From: Candidatus Kaiserbacteria bacterium
GTDB lineage: Bacteria; Patescibacteriota; Minisyncoccia; Phycocordibacterales; Phycocordibacteraceae
Reading direction: 5' to 3'
DNA length: 64,000 bases
Assembly (NCBI GenBank): GCA_016182485.1
Contig: JACPGH010000007.1
Location: 27,656 to 91,655 of the forward strand
Part shown: positions 985 to 44,936 of the stretch, piece by piece
Numbering within the stretch: position 1 is the stretch's first letter
Layout: every line of letters starts with the position of its first letter
Program-made: the position numbers and the translations under genes
Notes under the pieces: generated by a model
The model's database searches: none
Told to the model about the DNA's origin: nothing
What the model saw: the letters and a program-made list of their open reading frames with translations, nothing else

Positions 985-1695
985 CTACCAGGGTTCGAGC
1001 ATGATGGATTTGAAGTCCTCGCCTCGCGAAGCCATGTGCGCCTCGAGCAGTTCCCTCGCCTCTCCTTTGAACGAATCTCCGCTTCCGATAACTTCCGCCA
1101 TTAGCCCCTCTGCATCGTCTACGATCGGAATGGGATTCTCGAAAATGAGACCGGGCAGACTTGAGAATGGATAACGGCACGCCCATTCCCATGCGTCGTC
1201 AAAATTGACAAGCGCCGCTCGCAGCCCGCCTGGATACATCTCGAGTACATTCTTCACGAGGATATAGAACGCGAGGTAATTCAGATGCTCGCCCCTCTCG
1301 ACGACCCTTCCATGATAAGCACCCTGAAATATGCTTCCTTTCTCCTCATATTTCAGGTTGAAACACATGGACATACTTCCGCCTATTCTTTGCATAAATT
1401 TCGCCGTCCCGCCCTTCCGGATTTCTTGCAGCAACAGATGGAAATGGTTCGACAAGAGCGTCCAGGCAAGTATCCGGACCAGCGGCTCGCGTTCGGGCCA
1501 ATGCGATGGGCGTTCGAAAGCGGGAAGTTTGGCCGCTTCTCGATGCCAGTTCGGATCAGTGTAAGTATCGTTGAGCAGCAGAAGCGATCTGGTCGAGCGC
1601 CACCGATCTTCATCGTCGCGTACGATGTCCATTTCGCGAACCCCGCGCTTAGTGACGTGGACAATAGAATCCACTGAGTAGGGTTCAAGCCTCAT
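985..1695 (-). CDS. REP-associated tyrosine transposase (RAYT), an IS200/IS605-like Y1 HUH transposase
   Basis: HUH motif (SNHFHLLLQ) and a downstream YILVKNV segment resembling the RAYT Y-x-x-NPV catalytic region. Flanked on both sides by inverted pairs of the REP palindrome (REPtron layout). The true start may be an internal Met. Confidence 0.55.
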   Translation of the reverse strand: MRLEPYSVDSIVHVTKRGVREMDIVRDDEDRWRSTRSLLLLNDTYTDPNWHREAAKLPAFERPSHWPEREPLVRILAWTLLSNHFHLLLQEIRKGGTAKFMQRIGGSMSMCFNLKYEEKGSIFQGAYHGRVVERGEHLNYLAFYILVKNVLEMYPGGLRAALVNFDDAWEWACRYPFSSLPGLIFENPIPIVDDAEGLMAEVIGSGDSFKGEARELLEAHMASRGEDFKSIMLEPW

Positions 1696-16216: not shown

Positions 16217-16708
16217 CTAGAATTTCGCCAGCCTTCGCGCGTGGCGCGGCGAATCAGAGAACGGCGTGTTCAGGAAAATGCGGACCGCTTCGTCGGCTTC
16301 GCTCCCCGAAACGAACCGGGCGCCGATGCAGAGCACGTTCGCGTTATTGTGCCGGCGCGGGAGGCGCACGGCGTCATACCCGTCCTCCGAGCGGCCGCCT
16401 TCGATGTCGAGCGCTTCGGTCACCCGCATGGGGCCGTAGAAGACCGCGGCGCGGACGCCGGGCACTCGATTGGCGCACATCGCTTCGCCCTGCCCGCTGC
16501 CCCCGAGCGCGATGCCGCGCGCTTCGGGCTCGGCCGCCACGCGGCGGGCGAGCGCCCCGACGACGTCCGGATAATCGTCATCCGGCGCGAGCGAGTACGC
16601 GCCCAGGTCTTCGGCCTCGTGTCCGAGCGCCCGCACGTGCTCGAGGAGCGCGTTCTTCAGGTCAAACCCGGCGTGGTCAGAAGCAAAATAAATTTTCATA
16701 ATTTTCAA
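16217..16708 (-). CDS. rpiB: Ribose-5-phosphate isomerase B (RpiB/LacAB family)
   Basis: MKIYFASDHAGF… and the catalytic Cys region (GSGQGEAMCANR). Confidence 0.85.
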   Translation of the reverse strand: MKIMKIYFASDHAGFDLKNALLEHVRALGHEAEDLGAYSLAPDDDYPDVVGALARRVAAEPEARGIALGGSGQGEAMCANRVPGVRAAVFYGPMRVTEALDIEGGRSEDGYDAVRLPRRHNNANVLCIGARFVSGSEADEAVRIFLNTPFSDSPRHARRLAKF

Positions 16709-17933: not shown

Positions 17934-18293
17934 TCAAACGGATCGCGCCGAGGCAGCAATTTTTTGGAAAATTAATGTTAATTCTTGGCTCTCTTTCTGT
18001 AATCTCCCTAAAGCATCGTCTTCTATCGTCCCACAGGACACCAGCATCCTAAGCCAGTGCTTCGTTTCTTGTATCTCTTTTTTGCATATGTAAATCTTGT
18101 TGACGAAATCTCTTTTTGAGCTGGCGCCGTTCGCTTCCATATAATTGGCTCCTACGCTCGTACCAGAGCGTAAAAGTTGGTTAACAATTGGATCTGTTAT
18201 ATGACTACGATGGATTTTCTTACAAAGCGATATAATTTCTTCACCAAACCGAGCCGTTCTTTCTTCTAGATCGTATTTCTTCGTTTGATCCAT
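17934..18293 (-). CDS. Four-helix-bundle protein (PF05635/TIGR02436, '23S rRNA intervening-sequence protein' family)
   Basis: 119 aa. Motifs LRSGTSVGANYMEA and RDFVNKIYICKKEIQETKHWL match the 4HB family. Sits exactly between a left arm and a right arm of a family-1 element. Confidence 0.75.
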   Translation of the reverse strand: MDQTKKYDLEERTARFGEEIISLCKKIHRSHITDPIVNQLLRSGTSVGANYMEANGASSKRDFVNKIYICKKEIQETKHWLRMLVSCGTIEDDALGRLQKESQELTLIFQKIAASARSV

Positions 18294-24300: not shown

Positions 24301-27300
24301 GCCGCCGTTTGTCTGAAGAGAGAGCGGGTAGTTGACCGACTGGTCTGTGCTGTCATGTACTTGAATCCATGCAGACCACGGAGAAGTATTCAACGCACCA
24401 AAATCCATCGCAATATTATCTGTGCCGCTGAAACGTACCCGTCCGGTAGCAGTCGTCCCCGAATTAGCCGGGACACCCGCGGCTCCATTCACCTGGAGCG
24501 AAAGGGCGGGATTTGAAACGCCAATACCAACGCTTCCCCCCGCATCTATGGTAAAGGGCGTGGCGTCCGGCGACTCTGTGTCCTCCACAACGAATGAGGG
24601 ACCACTCCCTGCATTCGTTACCGAAAGCACTCCCCACGGACTCGTCGTCCCGATGCCGACGTTGCCGGAAGTGTCTATCGTCAAAGATTCTACACCGTTG
24701 GAATAGAGCGAAAGTTTTTGAGCCTTGCCATTGACATCCCCCATCTGCAAAGTGCTGCCCGATTGTGAGGCAATAATTATATTGCCCGGAGCCACCGAGA
24801 GAACATAATTGGAGGTCGCGTAGAATCCAGGAGCCGTAAGGTATCCGTTATAATCCCATCTGGCTAATTCTGATTGTGCGCTATTTTCGATTCTTATGAT
24901 TGGTCGGTTTGCTGCGTCATCTATAGTTCTAAAAACCGCGACATAGTCATTTGGAGACGCGCTCGTCGAACCGGCCACGACCAATTTCGACGTTGGATTC
25001 GTTACACCAATCCCCACGTTCCCTCCGAGGAACACCGCCGCCGGGCCAGTCGATTTCTGCTCGATAGCGAGCGTCGGATACGCCGAGGTGCTTGAGGCAG
25101 AGAGCTGGCCCCAAGGGGTGGTGGAACCGATCCCGAATTTCCCATTCGAAAGGTCAAGGGTCATTCGGGTTGTGGGCGTAAAAGCAGAATTCATCGTTAA
25201 GCCCGTATCCCCCGTAAACAAAAGTTCTCCGTTTAGCTCTCGGAGCATAGAAGCCGCCGTTCCGCGGGCAACCATAGCGGCTGCGACCTCGTCTACGTCG
25301 AAACCTAGGAATACATTTCCAGAATTGACGACGGACATTGAAATAGACCCGGGACCTGCGGCATAACCAGAATTCACAATAAATTGCGAATTAAGCCCTT
25401 GGCCCCCTCCATAATTCTGGATATTTAACAAAGCATCTGGACTCGTCGTCCCGATCCCGACGTTGCCGCCTTCCTGAATGTACATCCGCGCAGACAATGT
25501 TGCTGCACTCCCAACCGCCCCGCTTGGCGCGGTGTAAAATCCAATATCTCCAGCTCTGTTGTTATCATTAATCCCGATTGCTGCGCCACCGGCGGCTTCT
25601 ATATATTTCCAACCACTCGAATAGTAAAGGTTGCCCGCTACATTGGCTCCGGCGTTCCCACCAAAGGTCATGTCATCCCCTGATGTGGCAATATGAAGAA
25701 GATTTAGCGGACTCGTCGTCCCGATGCCGACGTTGCCAGTGCTATCAGCAATGAACATTGAATCATCTGGAGCGTTGTAGCCGATCGAAAACTTCCTTCC
25801 ACTCGTTCCTGCATCTGTCCCAAGAATTATTCTTCCAGCGTTATTACCAAAGTAAACTATCTTACCAGCTGGAGAAGATGCTGAGTCATCCAAGCGTATA
25901 TATGGAGTCGAACCAACTGCATGAATAATCTGTACAGGATTGGCGACTCCTATACCGAGTTTCCCATTAGTCCCCCCTGCAGTTGATGCTCCGACGAAAA
26001 GATCGCCTCCAATAGAGGTGAGTGCAGCCGGACTCGTCGTCCCAATGCCGACGTTGCCTGAGCCGTTTGCGTAGAGGGTGCTGGCGATCGCGACTTGAGT
26101 AGCCGAAACACTAATGGCATTATCGAGACCTGCTGCAGCAAATGCCAGAAGAGTTTTATCGTCTTTACCATCACGTATGTAGAAATTGTTACTGGTCAAG
26201 CCTCCAATGAAGCCAACCTTCCACAAAGCAGCTCCGTTCGAGTCTAATGTAAGCCCTCCATCATGGCTATTATTTGGTCTATTAAAAAGAATAGAAGCAG
26301 GGCCACCGCTAATGGAGAGTAACGCTCCCGGACTCGTCGTCCCGATGCCGACGTTGCCGTTCGCTTGCAATGTCATCACTGTAACATCCCCTGTTTTATC
26401 AAAACTGCCGCTGCTTTTGAGATTAATATCGAGGCGTGAATACGGATTGGTATCACCCACTTGGTATCGTCCGAGCGCAAATTCCGCAATATTGGGATAT
26501 GAGACACCGTCATTTACACCTCTATAGAGCTGCAGGATTCCTGCTGCTCCCACTGAAGAAGGAGCAACAGAGCCCACCACCTCAAGAGGCACCGCTGGAT
26601 TTATCGTTGGAGTTCCGATACTCACTTCGGTACCGCTTATAATCATCGCATCCGAAAATACATTTGCCCCCGTTGTGGTCTGAAACACTAACAAGGAGCA
26701 ATCATTTCCATAACAGTTACCCCCGAAAGTACCTAAAATTCTTCCAACCGACGGTGTTGGAGTCACACCTCCCGTAGGCGCAAGAAACCTGATACCCGCA
26801 CCCGGCCCATAATTTGTACCCGGTAAATCGTTCACCACCGCTATCTCGGCGCTTATATTTCCACTCCGTGTAGAAGTAGTATCGGACCGAGAAAATTCCG
26901 CAAGAAAATTCGGTATAGCTTTCCCAATCCCCACATTCCCCGCGTTCGTAATAGTAAGCGCCGCGGGGGTTGATGTCCCATACGCATCCGTCGATGTCCC
27001 GACGTACAGGTTCCCGCCCATTGAGGAAAAGAGCCAGTGTTTCAAGTTGGCACCCGCCGAAGAATCAGAGAGCGCAAAAGATGGTCGAGTGCCCGCGGCT
27101 TGCAGGAGCCAGTTCGGCGTCGTAGTCCCGATGCCGACGTTGCCGGAGTCATTGACGACCATCAGGACATTATTCGTTGCGTCTCCATCTGTTTGATGAT
27201 GGCCGATGACGAAGGCCTGGCCAGTGTTGTCATTATCAGCGTCAAGGTTGACCCGGAAACTGCCTGTGCTTGAAATCATTCCCCAACCATCAGGTCCGGT

Positions 27301-36300: not shown

Positions 36301-37398
36301 TTCAGGTGCGGCAGTGGCGGGTACATACGCGAGCGAGACGTCCGCCTGGATCGCCGCATGCGTGAGATCGATGACTGCATTGCCGAACGCGAGATTCACG
36401 CGATTGACGAAGGATGGGGAAGCGGCCAGCGCATCGCGCGCCGTCGCCGCGAAAGCGAGCGCTTCTCTCCCCGAGACATCGAGGAGCGATCGATACGTCG
36501 AAAATATTTTCTCGACCGCGCCGTACGAGTTCTCGCCAAGCGCGAGGTACTGCTCTTTGCCGACGCGCGCCACGTTTGCGGGCGCATGCAGGATAGCGCC
36601 TCGCATGCGCTCCGGAGAAGAGAGGAACGCGAATGTCTCGAGGATACTGTCCTCGAGAAGCTGGGCTTCGCTCGCAGACAATTCACGCGAAGTAATAGGA
36701 GAAGTGCCGCGCCCGCCGCTCGCCCCGTTAGAAATCAGATTTCTAACTGGGCGGGCATCAAGCTTCAGTACGAACAGTGGCGAAAGAGAGATGTCCTTAA
36801 TCTCTGACGTCGCATATGTCCTATGTGCATCCTCTGATTTGGTCGTATTCCTAAAGGACGCCGATTTACGCTGGTTCAGATCCGCGGATATCCTCTGATA
36901 TGGATCCGCGCTAATCTCCCGGAAGCCGAAAGCGACGACGCGCGCGAACGAACCGAGAGCGCGTGCTGCCTGCGGAATGATCGGGGTCTGCGCGGCGAAA
37001 GCCGCTCCGGTTACCACGAACGCGGCTACCGAAAGCGCGGCGAGTTGAGAACGCCATCCGCTAAACGCAGATGATCGCAGATCTAAATCCGCGGATATCC
37101 GCTGATTCAATTTGGCGGAAATCCGCTTATACATCTGCGGAATCCGCGCAGCATGCCGGTGTGAGCGATATTCAGCTTCGCGCGCGCGCGCGAGCGCGCG
37201 CGAATAATCAGACTTACGCGCTTCCTGCCGGTCAAGGAAGCGGATAAGAGACTCTCTGCCGACGAACCAGCTGTGGCCGATCTTTTTTCCGGAAATTTTC
37301 CCGCTGCGGACTAGACGCGCGAGGTAATCGGAAGTATATCCGGACAGCTCTCCAGCATCCTTTGTCGTGATCAGATTTCCGTTAAGAGAAGGATCCAT
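18340..37398 (-). CDS. Giant (6352 aa) membrane-anchored fibre/adhesin-like protein: N-terminal cytoplasmic HTH_17 (MerR/excisionase-type) domain, one TM helix, ~6000-aa extracellular region with YadA-head-like NTAIG/NTTG repeats and dozens of phage-tail-fibre-like GNVGIGTTSP repeats, two tandem peptidase-S74-like intramolecular chaperone domains, and C-terminal DUF5011-like Ig domains
   Basis: Uninterrupted 19,059-nt ORF. N-terminal motif ITTKDAGELSGYTSDYLARLVRSGKISGKKIGHSWFV. TM segment WRSQLAALSVAAFVVTGAAFAA. ggactcgtcgtcccgatgccgacgttgcc (GNVGIGTTSP on the minus strand) recurs throughout. CSASDERLKQDI…FYW…GLIAQQV…MILAIQEL matches the S74 autoproteolytic chaperone. PPIVTLNGEAAMQISEGQTFTDPGATATDETDGDLT…TDAAGN matches DUF5011. 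Confidence 0.8.
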   Translation of the reverse strand: MDPSLNGNLITTKDAGELSGYTSDYLARLVRSGKISGKKIGHSWFVGRESLIRFLDRQEARKSDYSRALARAREAEYRSHRHAARIPQMYKRISAKLNQRISADLDLRSSAFSGWRSQLAALSVAAFVVTGAAFAAQTPIIPQAARALGSFARVVAFGFREISADPYQRISADLNQRKSASFRNTTKSEDAHRTYATSEIKDISLSPLFVLKLDARPVRNLISNGASGGRGTSPITSRELSASEAQLLEDSILETFAFLSSPERMRGAILHAPANVARVGKEQYLALGENSYGAVEKIFSTYRSLLDVSGREALAFAATARDALAASPSFVNRVNLAFGNAVIDLTHAAIQADVSLAYVPATAAPEVSALALRSFNEAGRATVALVGNTGDLLARATVAATIKTPEKAGLALRSVSEAGPRIAQAVFDAEYALAHRFVGATAFASDRYLALVTGTGDLAYAGVAAAQPLTLAPRRFSEMVNDPQIFSAVGRTIVGAYEATRGKGPALLENMNREGTPVAAVISQLSAGEKVALTTYRAINNFWDSATSPVRNLISNGASGLAYLLNPAPAPVIVYSPTSPKPATKATKGTASSPTSPKPATKATKGTASSTPVVASAPASAYIIPVTSLQQPASNFYTTVVEGVTQDYVTLSLNALKNDILSTVGGMLSPISRQTATNITTIQQVARIEKLDNLTINNGTFGGGTFDRSTLTNGISVAAAEATFGRLTITGGTTFSGNLVLASSTATAGGVYVNSMRFLHNYGTDNTFLGLDAGNFTMTGTQNTGIGANTLTANTTGLYNTAIGNLALNANTTGDYNTAIGGYTLPVNTTGRHNTALGLQVLTANTTGSYNTALGSLVLDANTTGDYNTVAGYQAASVNTTGNFNAGYGYRSLRYNTTGSNNAAFGTYAGWTNTTGTYNTFLGHLADAASSTLTNATAIGANAIVGASNSLVLGGTGANAVNVGIGTTSPYSLLSISNSQQTTVNTPLFTIASTTGGTSTSTLMTVLANGKIGIGKAVPTRLLDILGSGSGQTQVAITGADPNSRTQVSIQNDGNSYGAVDVYGTTQTGNLFGALQLNNSVLFKGNMADAGGIVAFGATSNNPVVFGTNNLERMRIDTAGNVGIGTTSPYSLLSISNSASTAVDTPLFTIASTTAGTSTSTLVTVLANGRVGIGTQAPLGALNILTSGGDTAGSNQVLTLGDSLTGGRQTWGFRVSTTAVDTNGGDLHIERALGGVVNTVLSLTRSKSAAGVGTTTPWGKLSVTNGDNSFPSFVVEDTASPDSTPFIIDSDGNVGIGTSTPSSKFSVNGASLLNGGVTIDGAGSGLTFTGTGNHDIVAAGGTLRIGSNIITGNIEALDGTQDIGTPSVRFDKIYANEVSAVTVVGTIVGGNVQAETLTVNSDNTSADQESAYLVFARGSSSPNAQLAWNAATSSKRFEFNQPLYIQDASLTSATSTLFVQGWSGQTSDLFRIASSSDTVTPYLTVTSAGNVGIGTTTPAEQLEITGNFRLPVTTTAVGQIKMGDNRWIDSYGTGNLMIGTNGAPAGNTTLTGTYNIGIGGDLVLSSITTGTSNIAIGRYGLKSLTTGNNNSVLGYLAGASLTTASNNVAIGTSALNSNVTTDGLTALGAYALADTTGVENTGLGLQAGYHISTGAYNTAVGSNAIGGAIVTGDFNTAVGRSAMSANTSGASNIGIGVNVLLSNTTGSYNIAMGQSALQTATSSSNQVAIGYQALLNMITGPSNDTEGNVALGYNAGNAITYGGGNILLGYQAGDALTTGSRNIILGYDIDAPAVTSSNILNIGNLIYGTGIDGTGTTLSSGNVGIGTTSPSGKLTVEAASGVVNSAESAGTLVLRSSDAAAIDKGPQLRFSGFGGGATGALAFATIAGRMESNPNAGYLQFSTTQTDSTIAERMRITSTGNVGIGTAGPNYKLDIATASSNTQIRFGSDGTNSGGFLISTADSQGNIAGGMSWNGSSYVARSTMASQVENYLGNIRFFTNSGLTAGNSFTPTERMRIDTSGNVGIGTASPGSGIATALTTSLHIGPGSGTNPGIVLQDNSNSKKHILRIIDDAFWISADDGSIQRTDIAIKSDTGNVGIGTTSPAALLSVHGNSYVSGTGFFGGAITGTSTLAVGTSTLTNLIVTNTSTSTLTGGLVAGTNVRASLPSDPTWYTEISAENSGSYLKTAGYSVLNLRVGATNVMALNGSSNTLAGNLGLSTSKILGVDNIAYIDLYNPSTGNIHITNTSASATYGNILFETGASATEQMRITNSGNVGIGTTSPYAKLSVVGETVSQYFTATSTTATSTFAGGLSAGNAGLLVMQNGAVQIGGSDRFDFTPGPTSIFTINNPNSNSIGINLNTGDSQSAFVNFSRSSAVKWGLGLPYSASDNFVISKGNAPAEDSSAVFTILSSNNNVGIGTTSPNNNLQVVSGAAGSAPLAITNTSDNYTVRVTSSGALPYWQFTNAAVSAVVNAGIDASSLNLGRGNVQIIGSDTPTASTIPARLYVVGDGTNPAAIFNTGNIGIGTTTPSARLDIVPTTVPSQTYAPIMILESRLANGYSEQGGYIGFRQVDVGNNVVTNDAARIVAVHDNFQAEQGDTGLSFWTTPANLSVAERVRISSTGNVGIGTTTPGVLLDVVKNSTSDNGTIFPTVRVRNLSTSDKSYAQFQVDVAGGGVTSYWQGEGVGTGKLGTPGAFIGTYTNHPFAFVTNDSEKMRLTAGGNLGIGETAPGSKLSVSGGATIGASYDTTVAPTNGLIVEGNVGIGTTSPYSLLSISNSAGTTVNTPLFTIASTTAGNSTSTLMTVLANGNVGIGTAAPGYTLDVTKSEPGNYVANFYNSNTTNGSHGMYVNVAQGSNTNALVVATEGTPRLTVNSTGVVSGGNFTTTSGYIGYDVNHNLNWTGSAYRLLSNADPITFVGAYELMRITAAGLVGIGSTTPWGQLSASSTSAYPTLAIEQKSTGPAAVFLGGNVGIGTTSPASLFSVHGNGLFSGNITAANITATGTLTAANISTTGYLSTSNAAVGGDDWYISAGDSGHLGFFKDSTAVSTNGKMVLTTGGLLGVGGGLNTATVPAEELEVYSSSGVTAIRITGDSNQGAPELQFNMRNGVANQAKIVGSSGESHNSPELQFYVNTGADSTNTLVQRMTINDLGKVGIGTTSPYSLLSISNSAGTTANTPLFTIASTTGGTSTSTLMTVLANGRVGIGTAGPSTLFDIVSNSSATSTIRQFLTSDAGPALQLIHARGTASAPSATCGVDCSSDTLGQIDFMGYDGSAYQTGARIIAEAAGNGSWSPGGLGTSLVFYGVDTNTSSLAERMRFQPNSTVEFFGLGASGLSLTGSQMIVSSSFRFGYGGTTQDGYVPATGPDGWGMISSTGSFRVNLDADNDNTGQAFVIGHHQTDGDATNNVLMVVNDSGNVGIGTTTPNWLLQAAGTRPSFALSDSSAGANLKHWLFSSMGGNLYVGTSTDAYGTSTPAALTITNAGNVGIGKAIPNFLAEFSRSDTTSTRSGNISAEIAVVNDLPGTNYGPGAGIRFLAPTGGVTPTPSVGRILGTFGGNCYGNDCSLLVFQTTTGANVFSDAMIISGTEVSIGTPTINPAVPLEVVGSVAPSSVGAAGILQLYRGVNDGVSYPNIAEFALGRYQVGDTNPYSRLDINLKSSGSFDKTGDVTVMTLQANGNVGIGTTSPGALLSISGGPASILFNRPNNSHDGGLTLDSNGAALWKVGFIGGLTSNNFYIRDGKDDKTLLAFAAAGLDNAISVSATQVAIASTLYANGSGNVGIGTTSPAALTSIGGDLFVGASTAGGTNGKLGIGVANPVQIIHAVGSTPYIRLDDSASSPAGKIVYFGNNAGRIILGTDAGTSGRKFSIGYNAPDDSMFIADSTGNVGIGTTSPLNLLHIATSGDDMTFGGNAGANVAGNLYYSSGWKYIEAAGGAAIGINDNNRAGDIGFYTAPSGAVGSAATLSARMYIQEGGNVGIGTTSPDALLNIQNYGGGQGLNSQFIVNSGYAAGPGSISMSVVNSGNVFLGFDVDEVAAAMVARGTAASMLRELNGELLFTGDTGLTMNSAFTPTTRMTLDLSNGKFGIGSTTPWGQLSASSTSAYPTLAIEQKSTGPAAVFLGGNVGIGVTNPTSKLVVAGSTSASPNDYVAVFRTIDDAANRPIIRIENSAQSELARWDYNGYLTAPGFYATSNYVLSVAPGNIIIASQSGSTLQMGDVNGKAQKLSLYSNGVESLTIDTSGNVGIGTTSPWGVLSVTNAGSGPSFVVEDTESPDATPFTIDAGGSVGIGVSNPALSLQVNGAAGVPANSGTTATGRVRFSGTDNIAMDFGALNTSPWSAWIQVHDSTDQSVNYPLSLQTNGGNVGIGTTNPGATLQVGTNVLTVSATTSNVGIGTVSPLATLHVAGDIFQPYSQQIRSGLDNTSIYGYLELYNTSTGNLTLQAHSANNRSALINPNGGNVGIGTTSPWADLHVRDTAQSAGITDTPDSWLNALFERAWGSSSAAGIAIVGSSKSTGGNGVVYLGNSDDWDNTALSGGNDVFKLYVGATIPFITAQGTGSGDGKLSIATTSANQVLTLYQPANDVAIELSALAGPTYKWTMGMDYSDGGKFKIASSSALGTDDRFVIDGNGNVGIGTTSPESRLAVAQPSAISSTFDLATLDANTNVTNASGVTQRGLVLKMPTFTMNNAPATLTGARIETGSPGQFDQGGDVATVRGIEITSGNWLGNTGGFTWRGVQITTPTMRKDHSGGNAQESYGIDITTGATTGSGTNGINTGLRITGGSQSNAGIQRGLHINMADASHAALIVQTGNVGIGTTTPGVLLDVYKSSNLVSRFDSGSHNYLRLNRGAVTNNNELEFQTNGTTNWAMGLGDDSENKFYITTNNAVPSDGAKLTITTAGNVGIGTTSPVGHLEIANTTTNNTRLILRGTTGNGAVLINGTDLTTAQEWFKIDAFGRASFDEQAQSTAETPAVNISNLTGYGIFGSSYLGFTTNASEKMRITSGGNVGIGTTSPYSILSISNAAGTAVNTPLFTIASTTAGTSTSTLMTVLANGNVGIGAAAPGGKLSVAGNIFFGDESHYLSTDNSTYAMLSSNRDVQLSISGNPKLTVQASTGNVGIGTTTPTNTLTVSGTRVAGSLTSVAKIGTSGFGGQTGDAIGLLFSDTATGGYDFARIQTRAPGGSNMALDFGVWDGSTISNYMTIIKNGNVGIGTTSPQSKLHVTGGFSGITPLAGTVLTVENSGSNYLSLLAPNANEQALLFGSPNNVADGGVFYSPNGLSRGMSFRTGGNATQMVINSTGNVGIGTTTPLSILQTTTGGDNYFVMDNKNYATSEGIWRLHVGNTTDFFSIEQNTAAVRDFSTSYTPFFIGGVSGGYNQRVGIGTTTPGSKLSIAGGVSVGTNYGAAAPTNGMIIEGNVGIGTTSPGTLLSLGDTGANTINISATATSTFGSGIDIRTGCFAINGVCVGGGSGTGTVGSGTAGQFPYYAGTGTTLTATSSLYVATNERVGIASSTPFAKFAVENTSAALSFAVNDQAGDPTPFVIDDSGDVGIGTASPGGQSERFSIVTTAGSASAMTIYNGSDPNYIGEFGIDASTGNLIITSRLVGSGVQPIYMSASAIGLGTTTPATLLEVGGETANVTFDGYKNCTGFTSNGNGLLACSASDERLKQDISPLATASGLSAIDALRPVSFYWDPAAERSSQKQFGLIAQQVREVFPDLVQTSAPTSLTPDGTLSINYDGLAAPMILAIQELSTTSTRLAGRVGTLENEITALTGGYFGFSYEGSISARNEPVTAPIIANWVYASSTPASIVENLQKPAEGIEPSEIEVTGSFPHQAAGLFTVYGNVAADSFVASTSVWTSNLAVTNEGYINRLTAQEVSATSFVNTSTRALKTDINYMSASSTEAVLGKVRGLKVATYRYAAEAGSNPLRLGLIAEDARETAPEILSIDGNGVDLYKLATLTLAGVQTLAEKVDRAEVRLTSLEARLAALESGAVSSASGSPVSFSTTSLASAFNAFGAYIAKGIAQFGTLVADQFVAATNSAGTSSAGTVKIIAGNTVAEVQNAYVKPSTKIFVTFTASTTGSWYIAEKKDGSFRLVLESPQAGDTSFDYFLIQTEGQMATSTPESQISNSQFSISNSNTSTQWITVLGDNPYLIEVGGNFVDPGIDAGGAPVTTYINGVESEVGPGTIDTSSETTYIITYRVLGPNGSIMATRSVIVGNGSVVAGTTSQESQVTSQESSATPESEVISPDSDSQPPIVTLNGEAAMQISEGQTFTDPGATATDETDGDLTAKIATSGSADTATAGSYTLTYSATDAAGNTGSVSRLVTVIEPLSAATETSTTPQ
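18548..18570. repeat. Fifth copy of the REP palindrome (tgtgaaggtctgaccttcac), lying in frame inside the C-terminal DUF5011-like domain of the giant gene
   Basis: Identical 19-bp palindrome to the REPtron flanks. Encodes SEGQTFT. Confidence 0.7.
35567..35690. repeat. Perfect ~62-bp tandem duplication inside the giant gene (encodes SPTSPKPATKATKGTASS x2)
   Basis: ggagcttgccgtgcccttcgtagcctttgtcgcaggcttaggcgaagtaggg appears twice in succession. Confidence 0.85.
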
Positions 37399-38021: not shown

Positions 38022-38795
38022 CTATCTGTCTATTTCATAGACTACTACCCCTGCCATGAGCGAGGCTCGTTTATCCGATTCTATATATTTATCGAAATAT
38101 CCAGTGCCAAGTATCGCCAGGGCCATAGTACACACGGCAACTAAAGCTCCAGACAGATATATCGCAGAGACCATCCTCTTTCCTCTGCTTTTAGGCTGAT
38201 CGTCTCCTTTATCCTCTGCTTCCTTCGGGAAATCCGGCAGCAGCTCCTTAGGAGGATGCCGGTATATGGCGCGGATTGGTATGTCTACCGATTCTTCGCT
38301 CTTCTCTCCGGGTCCTTCCACGCGTTCCGCGCGCTCTTCAGGCTCGAAATTGGCCTTCTCTATTTCGTTGGACGCTGTAATTGGGGTCGTAGCTATGCTT
38401 GCAACCTGCTCAAACCATGATTTCCAAGTCTCTGCCATATTCAATGGCGCAGATTCCGCGGAATTGTTCTCATCCGCGGATATCCGCTGATTTGAATCGG
38501 CGGTTATCAGCTCCTCCAGAGGAGCAGGCCCGTAGCGTGGAGATTCCCAGGCAGAAGAGACAAAAGATCGTGACTCATGGCTCTTTCCCCTCTTAGGCTC
38601 CTGTTTGGGAGTCTCCTCGCCGAAGCGATGATCGCGGACCGCAGTCTCAAGAACATACCAATTCCGACCTACTAGCCTGGCAGGCAGACGCCCTTCTCGG
38701 CACAGCTGCCCTATGTAATCCTTCGCATACCCGGTTACCTTCGCAGCTTGTTTTGACGATATGTACTTCTTGTCTTCGATAAGCAGCTCGTCCAT
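38022..38795 (-). CDS. Small paralogue of the giant protein's N-terminus: HTH_17-type DNA-binding domain + RISAD repeat region + C-terminal TM anchor (257 aa)
   Basis: KYISSKQAAKVTGYAKDYIGQLCREGRLPARLVGRNWYV aligns with the giant N-terminus. Shared palindromic DNA motif atccgcggatatccgctgat. C-terminal hydrophobic helix. Confidence 0.6.
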   Translation of the reverse strand: MDELLIEDKKYISSKQAAKVTGYAKDYIGQLCREGRLPARLVGRNWYVLETAVRDHRFGEETPKQEPKRGKSHESRSFVSSAWESPRYGPAPLEELITADSNQRISADENNSAESAPLNMAETWKSWFEQVASIATTPITASNEIEKANFEPEERAERVEGPGEKSEESVDIPIRAIYRHPPKELLPDFPKEAEDKGDDQPKSRGKRMVSAIYLSGALVAVCTMALAILGTGYFDKYIESDKRASLMAGVVVYEIDR

Positions 38796-38847: not shown

Positions 38848-40347
38848 CTATCCTATTCGTTCCCGTAGCAACTTTTGCAGTTCTTGAGGATTGCCCGCTC
38901 CGCGGCTCTCCCGCATAGCCTGCCCGACCAGGTACTGAAGGGAGGCCTGTTTGCCGCCTCTGTACTCCTCAACCGCCTTCTGCTCGCGGGCAATTACGGA
39001 ATCAACTATGGCGCCGAGCGCAGTCGCATCGTGCACTTGGATAAGATCGTGCTCCTTCGCGATAATTTCCGGATCTTCATTACCGCCGCCTTCTACTAAA
39101 AGCGCGAGCGTATCCTTCGCGCCGCGGGAAGAGAGCGACTGGGCTTTCACCAGCTTGATGAGTTTTGCGAATGCATTTGGATCCAGTGATTCGTAATCTT
39201 CATTCCCTTTCTTTGCGTATATACCGGCAAGATCTGAAACTATGTAATTTGCCGCCAGACGAACATTATCCGAATCATTTGAAAGCGCGGCTGCGACGGC
39301 GTCGAAGAAGGCCGCCCGCTCGAGAGTGCCTGAGACATATGCGATATCGTTCTCCTTAAGCGCATAGTCTCTCGCGTACCGCTCGCGCCGGAGCCAGGGC
39401 AGCTCGGGCAGCGACGCGCGTATCGCTTCAGTCCCGAATTCCGGAATCTCAGAAATAAGCAGCTTGGGCAGATCGGGTTCCGGAAAATACCTATAGTCGG
39501 CGCTCCCCTCTTTAAACCGCTGGTGGAAGGTCTCCTGTTTTTCTTCGTTCCAGCCGCGCGTCTCCTGCACCACCTTCCCTCCTTCTTGGAGCAGTTTCGT
39601 CTGCCGCTTGATCTCAAAATCAATCGCCCGCTCCACTGACCTAAACGAATTCAGGTTTTTTATTTCGACCTTTGTTCCCAGTTTTGAATTTTGGTCATTG
39701 GTGCTTGTTTGGTTCTTGAGATTTGGTTCTTGGGATTTAGCCACGCTGACGTTCGCCTCGATGCGCATCTCGCCTTTTTCCAGATTCGCTTCGCTGGCGC
39801 CGAGAGTGCGCAAGAGAAGCTGCAGTTCGCGCGCGAAGCGGCCGGCAGTCGAAGCATCGGGGATGACCGGCTCCGTTACTAGCTCCATGAGCGGGATGCC
39901 CGCGCGATTGAAATCGACGAGACTCCTTCCTGCAGTCCGTTCGCTGCGCTCAGGATCTCCGGCTTCGCCTGCGACGTGAATAGAGCGGGCGGTATCTTCT
40001 TCGAGATGCACGCGCGTCAATTCCACTCCAACAAGAGAGCCGCCGACAACAAGCGGGTTGGCATACTGACTGATCTGATACCCCTTCGGAATATCCGGGT
40101 AAAAATAGGACTTGCGATCGAATTCGCTGTAGTCCGCGAGCGCGCCGCCGAGCGCGGTGCCGACACGCAGGATATGCCGCACCGCCTCCCGATTCGCTAC
40201 CGGCAGAGTCCCGGGGTGAGCGAGACAAATGGGACATATATTGACGTTCGGCCGCGTCTCGTCCGGATCGTTCGCGCAGGAGCAGAACATCTTGGTCCGG
40301 GTCTTGAGCTCGGCGTGGATCTCGAGACCGATGGTAGGACGATACAT
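38848..40347 (-). CDS. gatB: Asp-tRNA(Asn)/Glu-tRNA(Gln) amidotransferase subunit B
   Basis: MYRPTIGLEIHAELKTRTKMFCSC…, GatB/YqeY C-terminal domain. Start set at the conserved N-terminus; the upstream extension is repeat read-through. Contains an in-frame family-2 repeat insert at 39655-39765. Confidence 0.85.
   Translation of the reverse strand: MYRPTIGLEIHAELKTRTKMFCSCANDPDETRPNVNICPICLAHPGTLPVANREAVRHILRVGTALGGALADYSEFDRKSYFYPDIPKGYQISQYANPLVVGGSLVGVELTRVHLEEDTARSIHVAGEAGDPERSERTAGRSLVDFNRAGIPLMELVTEPVIPDASTAGRFARELQLLLRTLGASEANLEKGEMRIEANVSVAKSQEPNLKNQTSTNDQNSKLGTKVEIKNLNSFRSVERAIDFEIKRQTKLLQEGGKVVQETRGWNEEKQETFHQRFKEGSADYRYFPEPDLPKLLISEIPEFGTEAIRASLPELPWLRRERYARDYALKENDIAYVSGTLERAAFFDAVAAALSNDSDNVRLAANYIVSDLAGIYAKKGNEDYESLDPNAFAKLIKLVKAQSLSSRGAKDTLALLVEGGGNEDPEIIAKEHDLIQVHDATALGAIVDSVIAREQKAVEEYRGGKQASLQYLVGQAMRESRGAGNPQELQKLLRERIG
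39655..39765. repeat. Family-2 AT-rich repeat (ttggtcattggtgcttgtttggttcttgagatttggttcttgggattt) inserted in frame in gatB
   Basis: Identical motifs to the intergenic copies at 40375-40535 and 41932-41995. Encodes …KSQEPNLKNQTSTNDQNSKLGTKVEIKNL…. Confidence 0.7.
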
Positions 40348-40374
40348 ATGCGAAAGATACTTCATAAAGCACCA

Positions 40375-40535
40375 AATCTCAAATCGCAAGATCCAAGATG
40401 AGTGCCCAAGAACCAACCTCTAAGAACCAAACAAAAACCAATGTCCAAAGGACCAATGTTTTATTTTTGAAGATTGGTGCTTGAAATTTGTTTGGTACTT
40501 GGGGTTTGGTGCTTGGAATTTAGTATTTTTGAGAG
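40375..40535. repeat. Family-2 AT-rich imperfect-palindrome element (arms caagaacca… / …ttggtgcttgg), complete copy between gatB and obg
   Basis: Left arm ccaagaaccaacctctaagaaccaaacaaaaaccaatg and right arm cattggtc…ttggtgcttgaaatttgtttggtacttggggtttggtgcttgg are roughly reverse-complementary. Confidence 0.7.
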
Positions 40536-41483
40536 TGTACCCGAGAATGCTTTGACCGATTCGGGCTCTTCGACCGTGACTGAAAGCACTTCCCTGCCGG
40601 TACTAGCGGCTAGAAGCTGGATCCTGGTTTCTCGTTCTGCGGCAGATATGAGGTCTATTTTTGACAGGATAATAATCTCTCGTTTGCGGGTCAGGCCTTG
40701 GCCGAATGCCTCAAGCTCTTTGCACACCTCCTCATAGGCCTTTAGCGGGTCATCTTGGTCTGCCGAGACGAGATGCAAGAGAATACCTGTCCTTTCTATA
40801 TGCTTCAGGAATTTTATGCCGAGTCCTCGGCCAGCCGAGGCGCCTTCTATCAAACCAGGTATATCGGCCAGGATATAGCCATAGAAATCGCCGAGCGTTG
40901 GTTCGAGGGTTGTAAAGGGATAGTCCCCTATCTTAGACTTCGCGCGAGTAAGGGCGTTTAAGAGAGAGGATTTCCCGGCATTGGGCAAGCCAATGAGCCC
41001 CACATCGGCGATAAGCTTGAGAGACAGCTCGATATTCCCCTCCTTCCCCGGCTTGCCGGCTGTCTGCTGGAAAGGATTCCGGTTCGTAGAGCTCTTGAAG
41101 CGCGCGTTGCCGAGCCCGCCCTTCCCCCCGCGGAAGATAATGATGCGCTCCCCTTCTTCCTTCACCTCGTACTCCTTCCCGACCGAGGGCACTCGGACAT
41201 GCGTTCCGACCGGGACCTTAAGGAGAACCGGCTCGCCGTCCGCCCCGGTCTGAAGCTCGTTCTTCCCAGCTTCGCCGTCTTCTGCCTTAAATTTTTTCTC
41301 ATATTTATAATTGGCGAGAGCGGCATAATCACGCACTCCAACCAGAATAACGTCGCCTCCCCTGCCGCCATCCCCGCCCGAGGGCCCGCCCTTCGCCTTT
41401 TCTTTGGTCCGCCGCCAGCGAATGACGCCGTCGCCGCCCTTCCCCGCCGCGGCGTAGATTGTCACCTCGTCTACAAATGCCAT
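40461..41483 (-). CDS. obg: GTPase Obg/CgtA
   Basis: Obg fold N-domain (GGDGG repeats), G1 GLPNAGKSS, G3 DIPGLIEGA. Start set at MAFVDEV. The C-terminal 23 aa are encoded by the family-2 repeat. Confidence 0.85.
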   Translation of the reverse strand: MAFVDEVTIYAAAGKGGDGVIRWRRTKEKAKGGPSGGDGGRGGDVILVGVRDYAALANYKYEKKFKAEDGEAGKNELQTGADGEPVLLKVPVGTHVRVPSVGKEYEVKEEGERIIIFRGGKGGLGNARFKSSTNRNPFQQTAGKPGKEGNIELSLKLIADVGLIGLPNAGKSSLLNALTRAKSKIGDYPFTTLEPTLGDFYGYILADIPGLIEGASAGRGLGIKFLKHIERTGILLHLVSADQDDPLKAYEEVCKELEAFGQGLTRKREIIILSKIDLISAAERETRIQLLAASTGREVLSVTVEEPESVKAFSGTLSKILNSKHQTPSTKQISSTNLQK

Positions 41484-41571
41484 TGCACCACGATACGCTA
41501 AAAAGAACCAAGAACCAAATCGCAAGAACCAAACAAACCACGCTAAAAAGAACCAAGGACCAAACAAACAC
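41484..41571. repeat. Family-2 element, left-arm type (aagaaccaa periodic repeats)
   Basis: aaaaagaaccaagaaccaaatcgcaagaaccaaacaaaccacgctaaaaagaaccaaggaccaaacaaaca. Confidence 0.65.
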
Positions 41572-41931
41572 TCAGGATACCTTATTGATGATTGCAGTAA
41601 GTATGAGCATGATTTCCCGCGCCTCGGATCTCAAGCGATGGCATTCCGCTATTCCATTTTCATTTGACTCTAGCAAGGAAAGCCAAAAGGCACTTTCCTT
41701 TGCTTCTTTTCGAGATATCCGCAATCTCATAACGAAGTCCTTCTTCCCGAGCGCCTCATTTCCTTCAATATAATTTGCCCCAATGGCTCCGGATGAGCGA
41801 ACTAATTGCTTAGCATCTTCATTGTTTTGTATGGTTTTCGGTAATCTGGAAACAAGCTTTCGTACGTCTTGAGCAAAAATCAGCGTCCTTTCTTCAAGAT
41901 TAAAACGTTTGCTCTTTTGAACATTGGTCAT
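41572..41931 (-). CDS. Four-helix-bundle protein (second paralogue; PF05635/TIGR02436 family)
   Basis: 119 aa. SSGAIGANYIEGNEA…KDFVMRLRISRKEAKESAFWL. Sits between the left and right arms of a family-2 element. Confidence 0.75.
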   Translation of the reverse strand: MTNVQKSKRFNLEERTLIFAQDVRKLVSRLPKTIQNNEDAKQLVRSSGAIGANYIEGNEALGKKDFVMRLRISRKEAKESAFWLSLLESNENGIAECHRLRSEAREIMLILTAIINKVS

Positions 41932-44474
41932 TGAGATTTGTTTGGTTCTTGCGATTTGTGATTTGGTACTTCAATAATACTCCATCCGTCGGCGAGGAAC
42001 GGTTCGGCTTTTTTATATTTTATCGTCTTCGTTTCGTCGCCTTTTTTGATGGTAACAAAATCGTTCCGGCCGTAGGATTGCTTGTTTACGATCGGCTGAG
42101 ACCCGGAGTCTTCCGAGCCGGCGGCTATGAGTTGCGCCCGGATCTTCGCTTCTTCCGCCCTGATGCGCGCCTCGTCCCGCGGCAGGATGTGCGGAACCAT
42201 CTCGGCGATGGTGGCACGGATATTTTCTTCGAGCTGACGGAAGCGCGCGAGCCCTTCGCGCCGATACTCGATGAGAGGATCCCGCTGGCCATACGCGCGC
42301 AAGGACACCGAGCGGCGCAGATAATCCATCGCCTCTAGATGCTCGAGCCAGAAAGTGTCGATTACCTGCAGAAGGAGTCTCCGGAGGGTCGCTCCGAACG
42401 CCTCGCCTAGCTCGGCCTTCCTGGCTTCGAATGTCTCGAGGGTCTGCGCAGGCGCGCCCGCGAGCATCTCCCGGACGATCTCTTCCACTTCGGCGTTACT
42501 CCCGAGAAGCGCGGTCCGGCGGCGAGCATAGATCGCGAGCCGCTGGGTATTCATCACGTCGTCGTAGGCGAGCACCTGCTTGCGCGCGTCGAAGTTGAAG
42601 CCCTCGATGCGCTCCTGCGCCGTCTCGAGCGACCGCGTTATCATCGCGCTCTCTATCGGCTCGTCCTCGGGAATGCCGAAGCGGCCCATCACCTTCTTCA
42701 GGGTCTCAGACGCGAACACGCGCATCAGCTTGTCTTCCAGAGATACGTAAAATCTCGTTTCGCCGGGATCGCCTTGGCGGCCGGAGCGGCCGCGCAGCTG
42801 ATTGTCGATGCGGCGCGCGTCATGCCGCTCCGTGCCGATGACCACCAACCCTCCCTTTAAGAGAACGGAGGCGCGCTCGTCCGCAGTGGCGCGCGCGCCG
42901 CCGAGCTTGATGTCGACGCCTCGGCCGGCGAGGTTGGTCGCCACCGTCACCCTCCCCTCCTTCCCCGCCTCCGCAATGATCTCGCCTTCGCGTTCGTGAT
43001 TCTTAGCGTTCAGCAACTCGTGCGGCACTCCCGCCTCGGCGAGATACCCGCTCACCAGCTCGTTGTCCTCGATCGATACGGTGCCGACGAGGATCGGCTG
43101 GCCTTTCTCATGCCGTTCCTTCACGGCTTTCGCCACCGCGCGGTATTTCCCGGCCGCCGTCTGGAATATGAGGTCGTCGTGATCCTTGCGCGCGACCGGC
43201 TTGTTAGTCGGGATGGCTACGACCTCGAGCCCGTAGACTGTATAAAATTCTTCCTCGGAAGAGAGGGCCGTGCCCGTCATGCCCGCGAGCCGCGCATACA
43301 TACGGAACAGATTTTGGAACGTCACGGTCGCGTACGTCCGCGTTTCTTCTTTCACTGCGGCGCCTTCTTTCGCCTCGATCGCTTGATGCAGGCCCTCCGA
43401 CCAGCGGCGGCCGGGCTGGAGCCTGCCGGTAAACTCGTCGACGATGACTATCTCGCCGCCCTGTACCACATATTCCTTATCCTTATGGAAAAGCGCCTTG
43501 GCGCGCACGGCCGTCTCAAGATGGTGCGCGTACTTCACCCCGCCCTCGGTATATAAGTTCTCGAGGCCGAGCGCCGCTTCGGCTTTTTTCATTCCCGCGT
43601 CCGTCACTTGGATCGCCTTCTGCTTCTCGTCCACCGTGTAATCCTCTCCCTCCCGCATGTGCTCGACGATGCCGGCGAACCGCTCGTAGAGCATCTGCGA
43701 ATCTCCCGCGGGCCCCGAGATGATAAGCGGAGTGCGCGCTTCGTCGATCAAGATCGAGTCTACCTCGTCGATGATCGCGTAATGGAAGCCGCTCTGCCGC
43801 TGGACTATCTGCGGCATTTCATACGCGGTATTGTCGCGCAGGTAATCGAATCCCAATTCGTTGTTCGTCACGTAGGTGATGTCCGCGGCGTACGCCTCCT
43901 GCTTGGACACCGGCCGCAGATAATCGTAAAAGACGAGATACGCCCCGGCTACATCGCGCGCCTCGTCCTCCTGCTTCTCCGTATGCGATGCGTCATATCG
44001 AAAGGCGCCGGAACTCGTCACCACGCCCACCGAAAGGCCGAGATAATCGTAGATCTGTCCCATCCAGGCCGCATCGCGCCGCGCGAGATAGTCGTTCACC
44101 GTGATGATGTGCACGCCTTTGCCGGAGAGCGCATGGAACGTGGCCGGTAGAGTCGCGACCAGCGTCTTCCCTTCTCCGGTGCGCATCTCGGCGATCTTCC
44201 CCTGCGCGAGCGCGAGCCCTCCCGCGAGCTGGACATCGAAATGGAACTGCCCGAGGGTACGGCGCGCCGCTTCGCGCACGAGAGCAAATACAAGCGGCAA
44301 GTCCTCCTCCCGAGCGGCTTCGCCCTTGAGCGCCGCGAGCCTCCCGGAAAGCGCCTCTTTCGGCAGTCCCGTAAGCTCGCCCTCGAGCGCATTCACCCTC
44401 TCGATGGCCGGCGCCGCCGCTTTGAGAAATGCGGCGGATTGATCCTTAGAGAATAAGCGCGAAAGCCCTAACAT
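41928..44474 (-). CDS. secA: Preprotein translocase ATPase SecA
   Basis: MLGLSRLFSKDQSAAFLKAAAPAIERVNALE… N-terminus, DEAD-like motor domains, GTERHDARRIDNQLRGRSGRQGDPG. Start set at the conserved Met; the upstream 100-codon ORF extension is not supported. Confidence 0.85.
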   Translation of the reverse strand: MLGLSRLFSKDQSAAFLKAAAPAIERVNALEGELTGLPKEALSGRLAALKGEAAREEDLPLVFALVREAARRTLGQFHFDVQLAGGLALAQGKIAEMRTGEGKTLVATLPATFHALSGKGVHIITVNDYLARRDAAWMGQIYDYLGLSVGVVTSSGAFRYDASHTEKQEDEARDVAGAYLVFYDYLRPVSKQEAYAADITYVTNNELGFDYLRDNTAYEMPQIVQRQSGFHYAIIDEVDSILIDEARTPLIISGPAGDSQMLYERFAGIVEHMREGEDYTVDEKQKAIQVTDAGMKKAEAALGLENLYTEGGVKYAHHLETAVRAKALFHKDKEYVVQGGEIVIVDEFTGRLQPGRRWSEGLHQAIEAKEGAAVKEETRTYATVTFQNLFRMYARLAGMTGTALSSEEEFYTVYGLEVVAIPTNKPVARKDHDDLIFQTAAGKYRAVAKAVKERHEKGQPILVGTVSIEDNELVSGYLAEAGVPHELLNAKNHEREGEIIAEAGKEGRVTVATNLAGRGVDIKLGGARATADERASVLLKGGLVVIGTERHDARRIDNQLRGRSGRQGDPGETRFYVSLEDKLMRVFASETLKKVMGRFGIPEDEPIESAMITRSLETAQERIEGFNFDARKQVLAYDDVMNTQRLAIYARRRTALLGSNAEVEEIVREMLAGAPAQTLETFEARKAELGEAFGATLRRLLLQVIDTFWLEHLEAMDYLRRSVSLRAYGQRDPLIEYRREGLARFRQLEENIRATIAEMVPHILPRDEARIRAEEAKIRAQLIAAGSEDSGSQPIVNKQSYGRNDFVTIKKGDETKTIKYKKAEPFLADGWSIIEVPNHKSQEPNKSQ
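41932..41995. repeat. Family-2 element, right-arm type (ttggttctt repeats)
   Basis: cattggtcattgagatttgtttggttcttgcgatttgtgatttggtacttc. Confidence 0.65.
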
Positions 44475-44600
44475 TGGGCCATCATACCCCGTATGACTAC
44501 TTTTCGCGATATTGCATATTGGTAAAAGTACGTACAGCCAGCGCGTGGAGGCATACATAGAAAACAGGCGCGGCATCGGCGAGTTGTCATACGGGGCATA

Positions 44601-44636
44601 ACAGAAAATCGCGTCCTCCGGGACGCGATTTTCTGT
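44601..44636 (-). promoter_or_regulatory. Perfect 16-bp stem hairpin (acagaaaatcgcgtcc-tccg-ggacgcgattttctgt) in the secA leader
   Basis: Lies ~125 nt upstream of the secA start and directly downstream of a 15-codon Lys-rich mini-ORF (44651-44698). Confidence 0.35.
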
Positions 44637-44936
44637 ATCGAGGCTGATACTATTTGCGCTTCTTCGATGCCTTTTTCTTTGCCTTCTTCTTTGCCATGGT
44701 GGTTGCAATTTAGAATAACGGCTGATATGTCGACCCGTCTGCGCATTCGCCAGCTGGCGAAAAATTTTCCGCAAACGTTTCTACTCACTAGTATCGCGCA
44801 TTAAAAATATTTTTTGGGTTAATTTTTGCGCGACCTGTGGATAAACTCGCGTCAAAAAATTTCTCCGCAAAAAAATTTTCTCTAAAAGTTTTGAAAATCT
44901 TCTTGTTTCTCCCGCTTGCCCAGTAGGAAATGCCTT

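Follow-up and report, generated by a model that had tools for sequence, protein, structure and literature searches.

An in-frame, repeat-derived loop insertion in the gatB gene of a Candidatus Kaiserbacteria genome

In a genome of Candidatus Kaiserbacteria, from the Candidate Phyla Radiation (CPR, or Patescibacteria), the gatB gene carries a short piece of repeat DNA in frame. We studied it in a stretch of 64,000 nucleotides of contig JACPGH010000007.1 (the window; positions refer to it unless another locus is named). The gene (38848..40347, minus strand) encodes 499 amino acids, and the repeat-derived segment occupies 39682..39743 on the same strand. It consists of a single arm of a palindromic repeat, here called family 2, with the CCAA-type sequence on the coding strand. 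The insertion is genuine: repeat DNA has lengthened a loop encoded by an essential gene. It falls short of the size claimed before, and it represents one case of a pattern that recurs at this loop of GatB. We consider it probable that a solo family-2 arm was copied into gatB and stays there as a tolerated passenger.

Extent and origin of the segment

Family 2 is AT-rich and has a periodicity of 7 nt (or 14 nt), with units such as TTGGTTC, TTGAGAT, and TTGGTGC. TTG recurs at 7-nt spacing in its arms. The units are degenerate, not exact, and the copies are at gene boundaries. The family takes three forms: a complete palindrome between obg and gatB, a palindrome split around an open reading frame (ORF), and the solo arm in gatB.

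The first-pass annotation of this DNA had proposed a family-2 copy in frame inside gatB, and five kinds of evidence bear it out. First, repeat family D17 aligns 39682-39738 to the intergenic right arms at 40465-40521 and 41915-41971, with 77% identity to each over 57 nt. Second, the inverted pair I18 sets the gatB segment against 40405-40449 (45 nt, 82% complementarity). Third, a BLAST search of 39679-39744 against the window gave its best match, 29 nt at 97% identity, to 41508-41536 (E 3e-9). Besides it, three matches had E <1e-3; among the further matches are those to 40488-40523 (36 nt, 86%) and 41938-41958 (21 nt, 95%). Fourth, the motif TTGGTTCTTGRGATTTRG, allowing up to three mismatches, was seen 9 times with 0.13 expected, all within 39.7-42.0 kb. 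Finally, the segment has a foreign base composition. Its guanine plus cytosine (GC) content is 0.37, versus 0.57 in the remainder of gatB and 0.32-0.40 in the intergenic arms.

The size of the copy has to be corrected. The homology boundaries in alignment A1 are at ~39682 and ~39743, so the copy has ~60 nt and not the ~100-110 nt reported before. It encodes ~20 residues, (A)KSQEPNLKNQTSTNDQNSK. Five solved bacterial GatB proteins (from Thermus, Aquifex, Pseudomonas, Thermotoga, and Staphylococcus) show a gap of 13-14 residues at the insert, which is absent from these distant relatives. Orthologues with an empty site read AQEGSKEF (L126) and SEEEGKL (L128). The codon comparison with both places ~17-20 repeat-derived codons where 3-4 native ones stood, a net gain of ~14 codons. 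A gain of ~33 residues, as proposed earlier, is too high. The part "GTKVEIKNLNSF" and the tail LGTKVEIKNLNSF of the insert peptide given then are conserved GatB sequence.

The gene is intact, and its product is GatB by its two domains, its conserved residues, and its fold. Both Pfam domains, GatB_N and GatB_Yqey (PF02934 and PF02637), were found. The product is 100% identical to P0001, which NCBI annotates as a Candidatus Kaiserbacteria GatB, and a search of the PDB gave GatB matches at E 1e-101. At every position where 75 aligned homologues are invariant, it has the conserved residue. An AlphaFold2 model made with 75 homologues as input reached a predicted local distance difference test (pLDDT) of 85 and a predicted template modelling score (pTM) of 0.82, and it matches GatB structures.

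Two other origins were weighed. The source is a contig of a metagenome-assembled genome (MAG), and repeats are known to provoke mis-assembly, so the repeat might have been mis-joined into gatB. However, the reading frame runs through both junctions, and on either side the GatB sequence continues unbroken and conserved. Moreover, homologous inserts are present at the same codon positions in independent assemblies from other samples (L127, L003, and L001). An artefact is extremely unlikely. The segment could also have arisen in situ by slippage or low-complexity drift, with its likeness to the intergenic repeats due to a shared mutational bias. A period of 7 nt (or 14 nt) is typical of slippage-prone DNA, and the family-2 copies are all local, within 2.3 kb. 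Nevertheless, the insert is not a simple tandem array. It has the 29 nt at 97% identity in common with one specific arm and a 21-nt non-periodic core in common with dozens of unrelated contigs, and the GC content drops by 20 points exactly at its boundaries. In-situ origin is already disfavoured, and we hold it for very improbable.

The receiving loop and its counterparts in related GatB proteins

In the AlphaFold2 model, the insert comprises residues ~203-223. They form a low-confidence loop between the strands 194-204 and 227-232, with pLDDT <50 over residues 209-220. The loop is predicted to be disordered and on the surface. The insert aligns between Y200 and G201 of Staphylococcus aureus GatB, at the tip of the β11-β12 hairpin of the cradle domain. 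A docking model placed the 3_10 turn K183-E186, before β11, and the β12-α3 loop beside the U1-A72 pair of the tRNA, and F217 packs in the hydrophobic core fixing this turn (PMC2811023). By topology and alignment, the hairpin tip with the insert is at the strand end opposite the turn K183-E186 and F217.

We compared this loop in the 120 nearest GatB homologues (69-75% identity). Most of them show a short S-xEEG-xF loop and no insert. Extra residues are present in others: at least 4 in 28 of the 120 and at least 8 in 20, with insert lengths from 4 to 35 residues. The inserts are of several types, namely KSQEPN.KNQTSTN-like, KSEARSTKSETNS, RF[ND]LKSES.KVEPC, RSDL...RSDL, and longer unique ones.

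The closest counterpart is the insert of L127 (P0005), equal to that of gatB in position and length, with 79-82% nucleotide identity. Compared with L127, the insert has 79% identity and the remaining gene 70.6%, a difference that rests on 63 nt and is not significant. The insert of L003 (P0013) shares CAAGAACCAAACAA.CACCAA with that of gatB. It has no match longer than 9 nt within its own 5-kb contig and matches the intergenic arms of the window over 36 nt at 89%. The L001 insert is a CGAA-type variant of the heptad. It matches CGAA-type intergenic arms of L002 (33 nt, 94%) and, more weakly, of its own locus (21 nt, 90%). L002, L004, and L005 carry at the loop mini-hairpins of 42-45 nt with AAGGTCnGACCTT-type stems, and the orientation of the hairpin loop is opposite between L002 and L005.

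Since 20 of the 120 homologues have inserts of at least 8 residues, of several types, two of them matching heptad-type intergenic repeats of related loci, the loop is a recurrent permissive site for repeat-like DNA. The insertion event may be old or recurrent, because other inserts are present at the loop, near-homologous in P0005 and P0013. A neighbour-joining tree of the 120 GatB proteins is star-like and unresolved, with insert-bearing and insert-free sequences interspersed. For this reason, it does not separate independent gains from an ancient gain followed by losses. There may have been many independent hits, or one old insertion followed by concerted evolution, flipping of the loop, and losses.

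The recurrence could also reflect adaptation. A longer β11-β12 loop would have been selected in CPR lineages, for example for a contact with GatA, GatC, a non-discriminating aminoacyl-tRNA synthetase, or some other partner, and repeats would only have provided the raw material. Inserts of at least 8 residues recur at exactly this loop (20/120), inserts recur at one other loop (33/120), and KxQTSTN-like peptides are common to the inserts of P0001, P0005, and P0013. However, the insert types are unrelated in sequence (KSEARSTKSETNS, RFNLKSESKVEPC, RSDL..RSDL, and one of 35 residues), and their length varies from 4 to 35. The model predicts disorder, and no insert at all is present in most relatives, among them sister taxa in the tree. 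We regard an adaptive protein feature as improbable.

The other variable loop is in the second low-pLDDT hairpin (residues 124-142), after core position 125. There, gatB has a lineage-variable insert of its own (VAGEAGDPERSER, 39937-39975). The 33 homologues with inserts at this point have sequences such as LPAQAG, LSTSLKTG, and GDPERSER. No convincing repeat match to VAGEAGDPERSER was found in the window or in eight related loci.

We favor that repeat DNA reached the β11-β12 loop by copying and was then filtered by selection. A single arm of the palindromic, AT-rich, 7-nt-periodic repeat, whose full copies sit between the genes secA, obg, and gatB, would have been copied into gatB and would have displaced 3-4 native codons at the hairpin tip. 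The copying may have been a transposition. Alternatively, it may have been an ectopic recombination or a template switch with a copy less than 2 kb away (the closest match is at 1.8 kb). Four features would let the copy persist. Its length does not shift the reading frame. The mRNA carries the CCAA strand, which is stop-free and would be translated to a hydrophilic peptide rich in Q, N, K, S, T, and P. The site is a surface loop predicted to be disordered. Finally, it is opposite the elements docked beside the U1-A72 pair of the tRNA. The insert is thus most likely a neutral or slightly deleterious passenger and not a new functional domain.

The first-pass annotation saw here a colonisation of coding sequence. 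The intergenic origin, the intact gene, and the absence of the insert from distant GatB proteins and most close relatives uphold this view, and the refuting condition that the annotation had named, an insert conserved in distant GatB homologues, does not hold. On the other hand, ~14 net residues are a modest addition, the case is not a one-off, and the mechanism of copying is one that we infer.

Other family-2 copies and the elements around gatB

The genes around the insertion have the order secA (41928..44774), a 119-amino-acid ORF (41572..41931), obg (stop at 40461), gatB, an HTH_17 protein, and an ORF of 6352 amino acids, all on the minus strand. The order secA-obg-gatB is kept in 7 related contigs. 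A promoter and terminator scan of 39400-42200 gave counts not above those of shuffled sequence.

Two larger family-2 elements are in this region. Element A (40366..40530) is the complete palindrome, from the obg stop to the gatB start, with both arms and the loop TTTTATTTTT. Its predicted RNA fold has -52.6 kcal/mol (z -4.1). Element B (41490-41980) is split. Its left arm (41490..41571) is CCAA-type on the plus strand and contains the closest match of the gatB insert (41508-41536). Its right arm (41915..41980), a member of D17, is TTGG-type on the plus strand. The 119-amino-acid ORF is nested between both arms (41572..41931, minus strand). It encodes a four-helix-bundle protein of the family PF05635/TIGR02436, named after proteins of 23S rRNA intervening sequences (IVS) (Pfam E 2.6e-12; TIGR02436 E 1.4e-20).

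The family-2 arms also reach into the ends of the neighbouring genes. The C-terminal tail of SecA lies in the right arm of element B, as do the first codons of the four-helix-bundle ORF. The SecA extension, VPNHKSQEPNKSQ, has 13 amino acids (41931..41969, minus strand), and the arm-encoded C-terminal extension of Obg, NSKHQTPSTKQISSTNLQK, has ~18 (40464..40520, minus strand). Both are absent from six orthologues. The two tails use the same hydrophilic frame as the gatB insert. The CCAA strand has two open frames, with mean Kyte-Doolittle values of -1.28 and -1.12. The antisense frames range from +0.7 to +1.4, and the strand opposite CCAA encodes peptides rich in W, F, and L. That SecA, Obg, and gatB share the hydrophilic frame fits a selection filter on frame and orientation. 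At its other end, the longest obg ORF extends upstream into an arm (LFGPWFFLAWFVWFLRFGSWFFLAY); the true start is probably MAFVDE.

The arms upstream of gatB and obg could give the insert a function at the RNA level. Here, the internal CCAA arm would pair with the UUGG arms and control translation, or RNase III processing, of the transcript of secA, IVP, obg, and gatB. For the internal arm (39675-39750), the predicted duplex has -64.1 kcal/mol with the arm before gatB (40366-40452) and -73.5 kcal/mol with the arm before obg (41485-41575). With their own local partners, these two arms reach only -41.1 and -55.5 kcal/mol; the shuffled control gave -34.1 +/- 5.0. The minimum free energy and centroid structures of a 901-nt RNA both use the long-range pairing, and the insert is closer to L127 than the remaining gene is. 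However, two arms taken from one palindromic family are expected to be complementary in any case. The local hairpin is favored by folding during transcription and by translating ribosomes, which would disrupt the long-range pairing, and a 40-bp duplex in the coding sequence would be a target of RNase III, which would destroy the gatB mRNA. At this site, other lineages carry inserts that are unrelated or form hairpins of their own, and the difference in identity to L127 rests on 63 nt only. An RNA-level role seems unlikely to us.

Some observations speak against a mobile repeat arm that became a passenger in gatB. All family-2 copies of the window lie within 2.3 kb, so a genome-wide mobility would be conjectural. 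Family 2 adjoins no Y1 transposase, and the gene at 985..1695, similar to REP-associated tyrosine transposases (RAYT; REP, repetitive extragenic palindromic), has another repeat. The codon-level comparison with orthologues revealed no target-site duplication or other transposition footprint at the gatB junctions. The near-identical insert of L127 could mean an old conserved feature instead of a passenger. Finally, the strong predicted pairing of the internal arm with the upstream arms leaves room for a role of the RNA.

Outside the window, the 21-nt core of the insert, CAAACAAGCACCAATGACCAA (39691-39711, reverse complement), was found in 95 metagenome loci (L129-L223), none of them in gatB. 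The same heptad context surrounds 56 of the 84 unique instances, which are typically just past a stop or just ahead of a start codon. A detectable inverted partner within 135 nt accompanies 21 instances. The core is identical across dozens of unrelated contigs and nearly always has the form ...AAATTCCAAATCCCAAGCACCAAATTC[core]AAATTCCAATGACCAAAAC. This conservation is unusually strong for a non-coding repeat with variable neighbouring heptads. Two further ideas about these loci were rejected. The ATG in CCAATGACCAA is not the start of a PF05635 ORF, since few loci have a nearby gene of this kind and most copies are ORF-less. Other internal coding insertions were sought as well, but the long ORFs across the motif seemed to be spurious, with Arg-rich, high-GC frames, and no second case emerged.

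A 17-base heptad pattern matches, in palindromic arrangement, multiple contigs of Schlesneria, Chitinophagaceae, and Bacteroidales genomes. Near-identical heptads of family-2 type (AAATCTCAAGAACCAAGAACCAAA ... TTGGTTCTTGAGATTTGG; loci L048, L074, L055, and others) form intergenic palindromes in Schlesneria, a planctomycete (Planctomycetota), and such heptads are repeated in Terrimonas, Agriterribacter, and Bacteroidales MAGs. Because of its presence in these groups, the heptad motif is not CPR-specific. With Rfam, the region 39000-42500 and six related loci gave only sub-threshold miRNA-like hairpins and three tRNAs, and no curated RNA family.

The nested gene of element B has a second representative in the window. 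Both PF05635/TIGR02436 genes (41572..41931 and 17934..18293; 119 amino acids each) are between inverted 7-nt-periodic arms, each with its own heptad family. The spans of the elements are 41490-41980 for element B and 17880-18345 for the family-1 element, and in both the inverted repeats enclose the ORF. We made a comparison with 8 PF05635 genes of plasmids, taken without bias (L224-L231), from Anabaena, Planktothrix, Chlorohelix, Bernardetia, Treponema, Pseudanabaena, Nostoc, and Gloeocapsa. The sample covers cyanobacteria, Chloroflexota, Bacteroidota, and Spirochaetota. At least 7 of the 8 loci have both flanks 7-nt-periodic, and the heptad differs by genome. The flanks are clearly inverted in 4 loci (17-33 nt, 90-100%) and more weakly in 2 (11-16 nt); in the other 2, the arrangement is direct or undetectable. 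With the two window genes and L001 added to the sample, 20 of 22 flanks have lag 7 as their best or tied-best lag. Of the 11 PF05635 coding sequences, only the truncated copy of L001 shows it, and weakly. The plasmid genes are wedged between operon genes (cas2|cas1, drmD|pglX, and helicase|methylase).

These flanks might suggest a wider origin of the gatB insert. It could be the stray arm of a widespread, undescribed class of elements, with a PF05635 gene within inverted heptad arms, and with ORF-less palindromes and solo arms derived from them. The protein would act on the arms, in mobility or RNA processing, and the arms would seed protein tails and loop insertions. We propose this only tentatively. 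Literature searches gave nothing that links CPR, palindromic repeats, four-helix-bundle proteins, and heptamers, and text queries of PMC4679880 and bioRxiv 10.1101/2022.06.06.494920 gave no mention of a link between PF05635 and heptads. If true, the class would bring together ORF-bearing rRNA intervening sequences and the heptamer repeats seen in cyanobacteria, Bacteroidota, Planctomycetota, and CPR. The link could also give a handle on two long-standing puzzles, what PF05635 proteins do and how bacterial heptamer repeats arose.

The slot between secA and obg has different occupants in related genomes. A four-helix-bundle gene is present in the window (41490-41980), in L001 (4929-5357, a truncated copy), and in the contig of P0075. 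L002 has an IS200-like Y1 transposase there (4745-5734), and L005 (8406-8972) and L126 (5593-6195) have a Trp-repressor-like gene on the opposite strand. The slot is empty in L004 and L128.

Other repeats of the window are of different kinds. Family-1 heptad palindromes (TTGAAAA / TTGTAAA units; 11800-19000) fill almost all gaps between the genes of a pentose-phosphate and glycolysis cluster with a pfkB-like kinase, a split transketolase, rpe, rpiB, and gap. The family-1 arms at 12935-13006 and 16698-16769 are 97% complementary. RpiB (16217..16708) was considered as a host of a family-1 insertion and rejected, as its extra segment does not look repeat-derived. The ORF at 985..1695 (minus strand) is a homologue of Y1/RAYT-like transposases (tblastn to a PF01797 protein, E 8e-50; weak match to NCBIfam REP_Tyr_transpos). 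A doublet of the palindrome TGTGAAGGTCTGACCTTCACA (D18) flanks it on each side (910 and 955; 1719 and 1764), and a fifth copy is at 18550. The region 910-1788 has the classic layout of REP-RAYT systems, here in a CPR genome.

Downstream of gatB, the small palindromic repeat AATCAGCGGATATCCGCGGAT (peptide QRISAD / QRKSAS) is in frame in the HTH_17 protein (38022..38795), at ~38472. It occurs three more times near the N-terminus of the 6352-amino-acid ORF (~37087, ~36880, and ~36856). This ORF (18340-37398) has ~30-37 copies of a conserved GNVGIGTTSP-type motif, spaced irregularly at 200-1300 nt (D1-D8). In all related contigs, gatB is followed by an orthologous giant ORF, and some of these ORFs have Bact_surface_Ig-like domains.

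Comparison with known repeat systems

The gatB insert shows that small CPR genomes tolerate repeat DNA within an essential enzyme of translation. The GatB loop took up inserts in about one sixth of the nearest relatives, and for several of these the DNA matches intergenic repeat families. Such inserts are a natural map of where GatB accepts insertions and a marker for tracing lineages. They also call for caution from annotators and phylogeneticists, since a lineage-specific "insertion" in a CPR protein may derive from a repeat.

The nearest analogy is in Rickettsia. Rickettsia palindromic elements are repeats that lie in frame within housekeeping genes, where the protein structure tolerates them (PMC10969869, summarising Ogata et al. 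2000). As with them, family 2 consists of short palindromic repeats, both intergenic and in frame in genes, without a transposase in the element, and the peptide is added at a position probably compatible with fold and function. By analogy, the resemblance would be functional: the repeat is dispersed and intergenic, it inserts in frame, the host ORF stays intact, and orthologues lack it. In contrast, the host is a CPR bacterium, one arm (~60 nt) and not a whole element of ~150 bp was inserted, the arms are 7-nt-periodic, and there is no sequence relationship. Membership in the Rickettsia families proper is implausible because of the host phylum and the heptad structure, and there is no reason to assume homology. 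In-frame selfish or repeat DNA in coding genes is already known from Rickettsia, and the gatB case would add a CPR example of a comparable kind.

Family 2 resembles REP sequences and REPINs, which are short, imperfect, intergenic palindromes, often in inverted pairs. In L002, L004, and L005, the AAGGTCnGACCTT-type hairpins at the β11-β12 loop of GatB are of the REP-like type. It differs from REP/REPIN-RAYT systems in that no Y1 gene is adjacent, the arms are longer (60-80 nt) and heptad-periodic, and the nested gene encodes a four-helix bundle. We rejected its assignment to a REP/RAYT family, as the nested gene belongs to PF05635 and the Y1 homologue (985..1695) is flanked by D18. Nor does it fit a miniature inverted-repeat transposable element, judged by the gatB junctions: the full copies have inverted arms, but these junctions show no target-site duplication.

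Heptamer direct repeats share other features with family 2. They too are AT-rich, 7-nt-periodic intergenic repeats near start and stop codons. Examples are the cyanobacterial short tandemly repeated repetitive (STRR) sequences and the Nostoc heptamers (bioRxiv 10.1101/2022.06.06.494920), and TAACTGA of the Beggiatoaceae (PMC4679880). They are at times tolerated in coding sequence in a stop-free orientation, as in gatB, and they are spread over distant phyla. Text queries of the two reports cited gave no mention of an in-frame internal insertion in an essential enzyme. Family 2 has the 7-nt units and the intergenic position near gene ends that define this class, though its units are degenerate. 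Unlike direct repeats, it has two inverted arms and a conserved, non-periodic 21-nt core.

Element B recalls a fourth system. ORF-bearing intervening sequences of the 23S rRNA are known in Leptospira and Coxiella, and PF05635 is named for them. Element B has the same components, an ORF of ~120 amino acids for a four-helix bundle within inverted repeats able to form a long stem. Its location is different, between secA and obg with no rRNA nearby, and the gatB copy is a single arm without an ORF.

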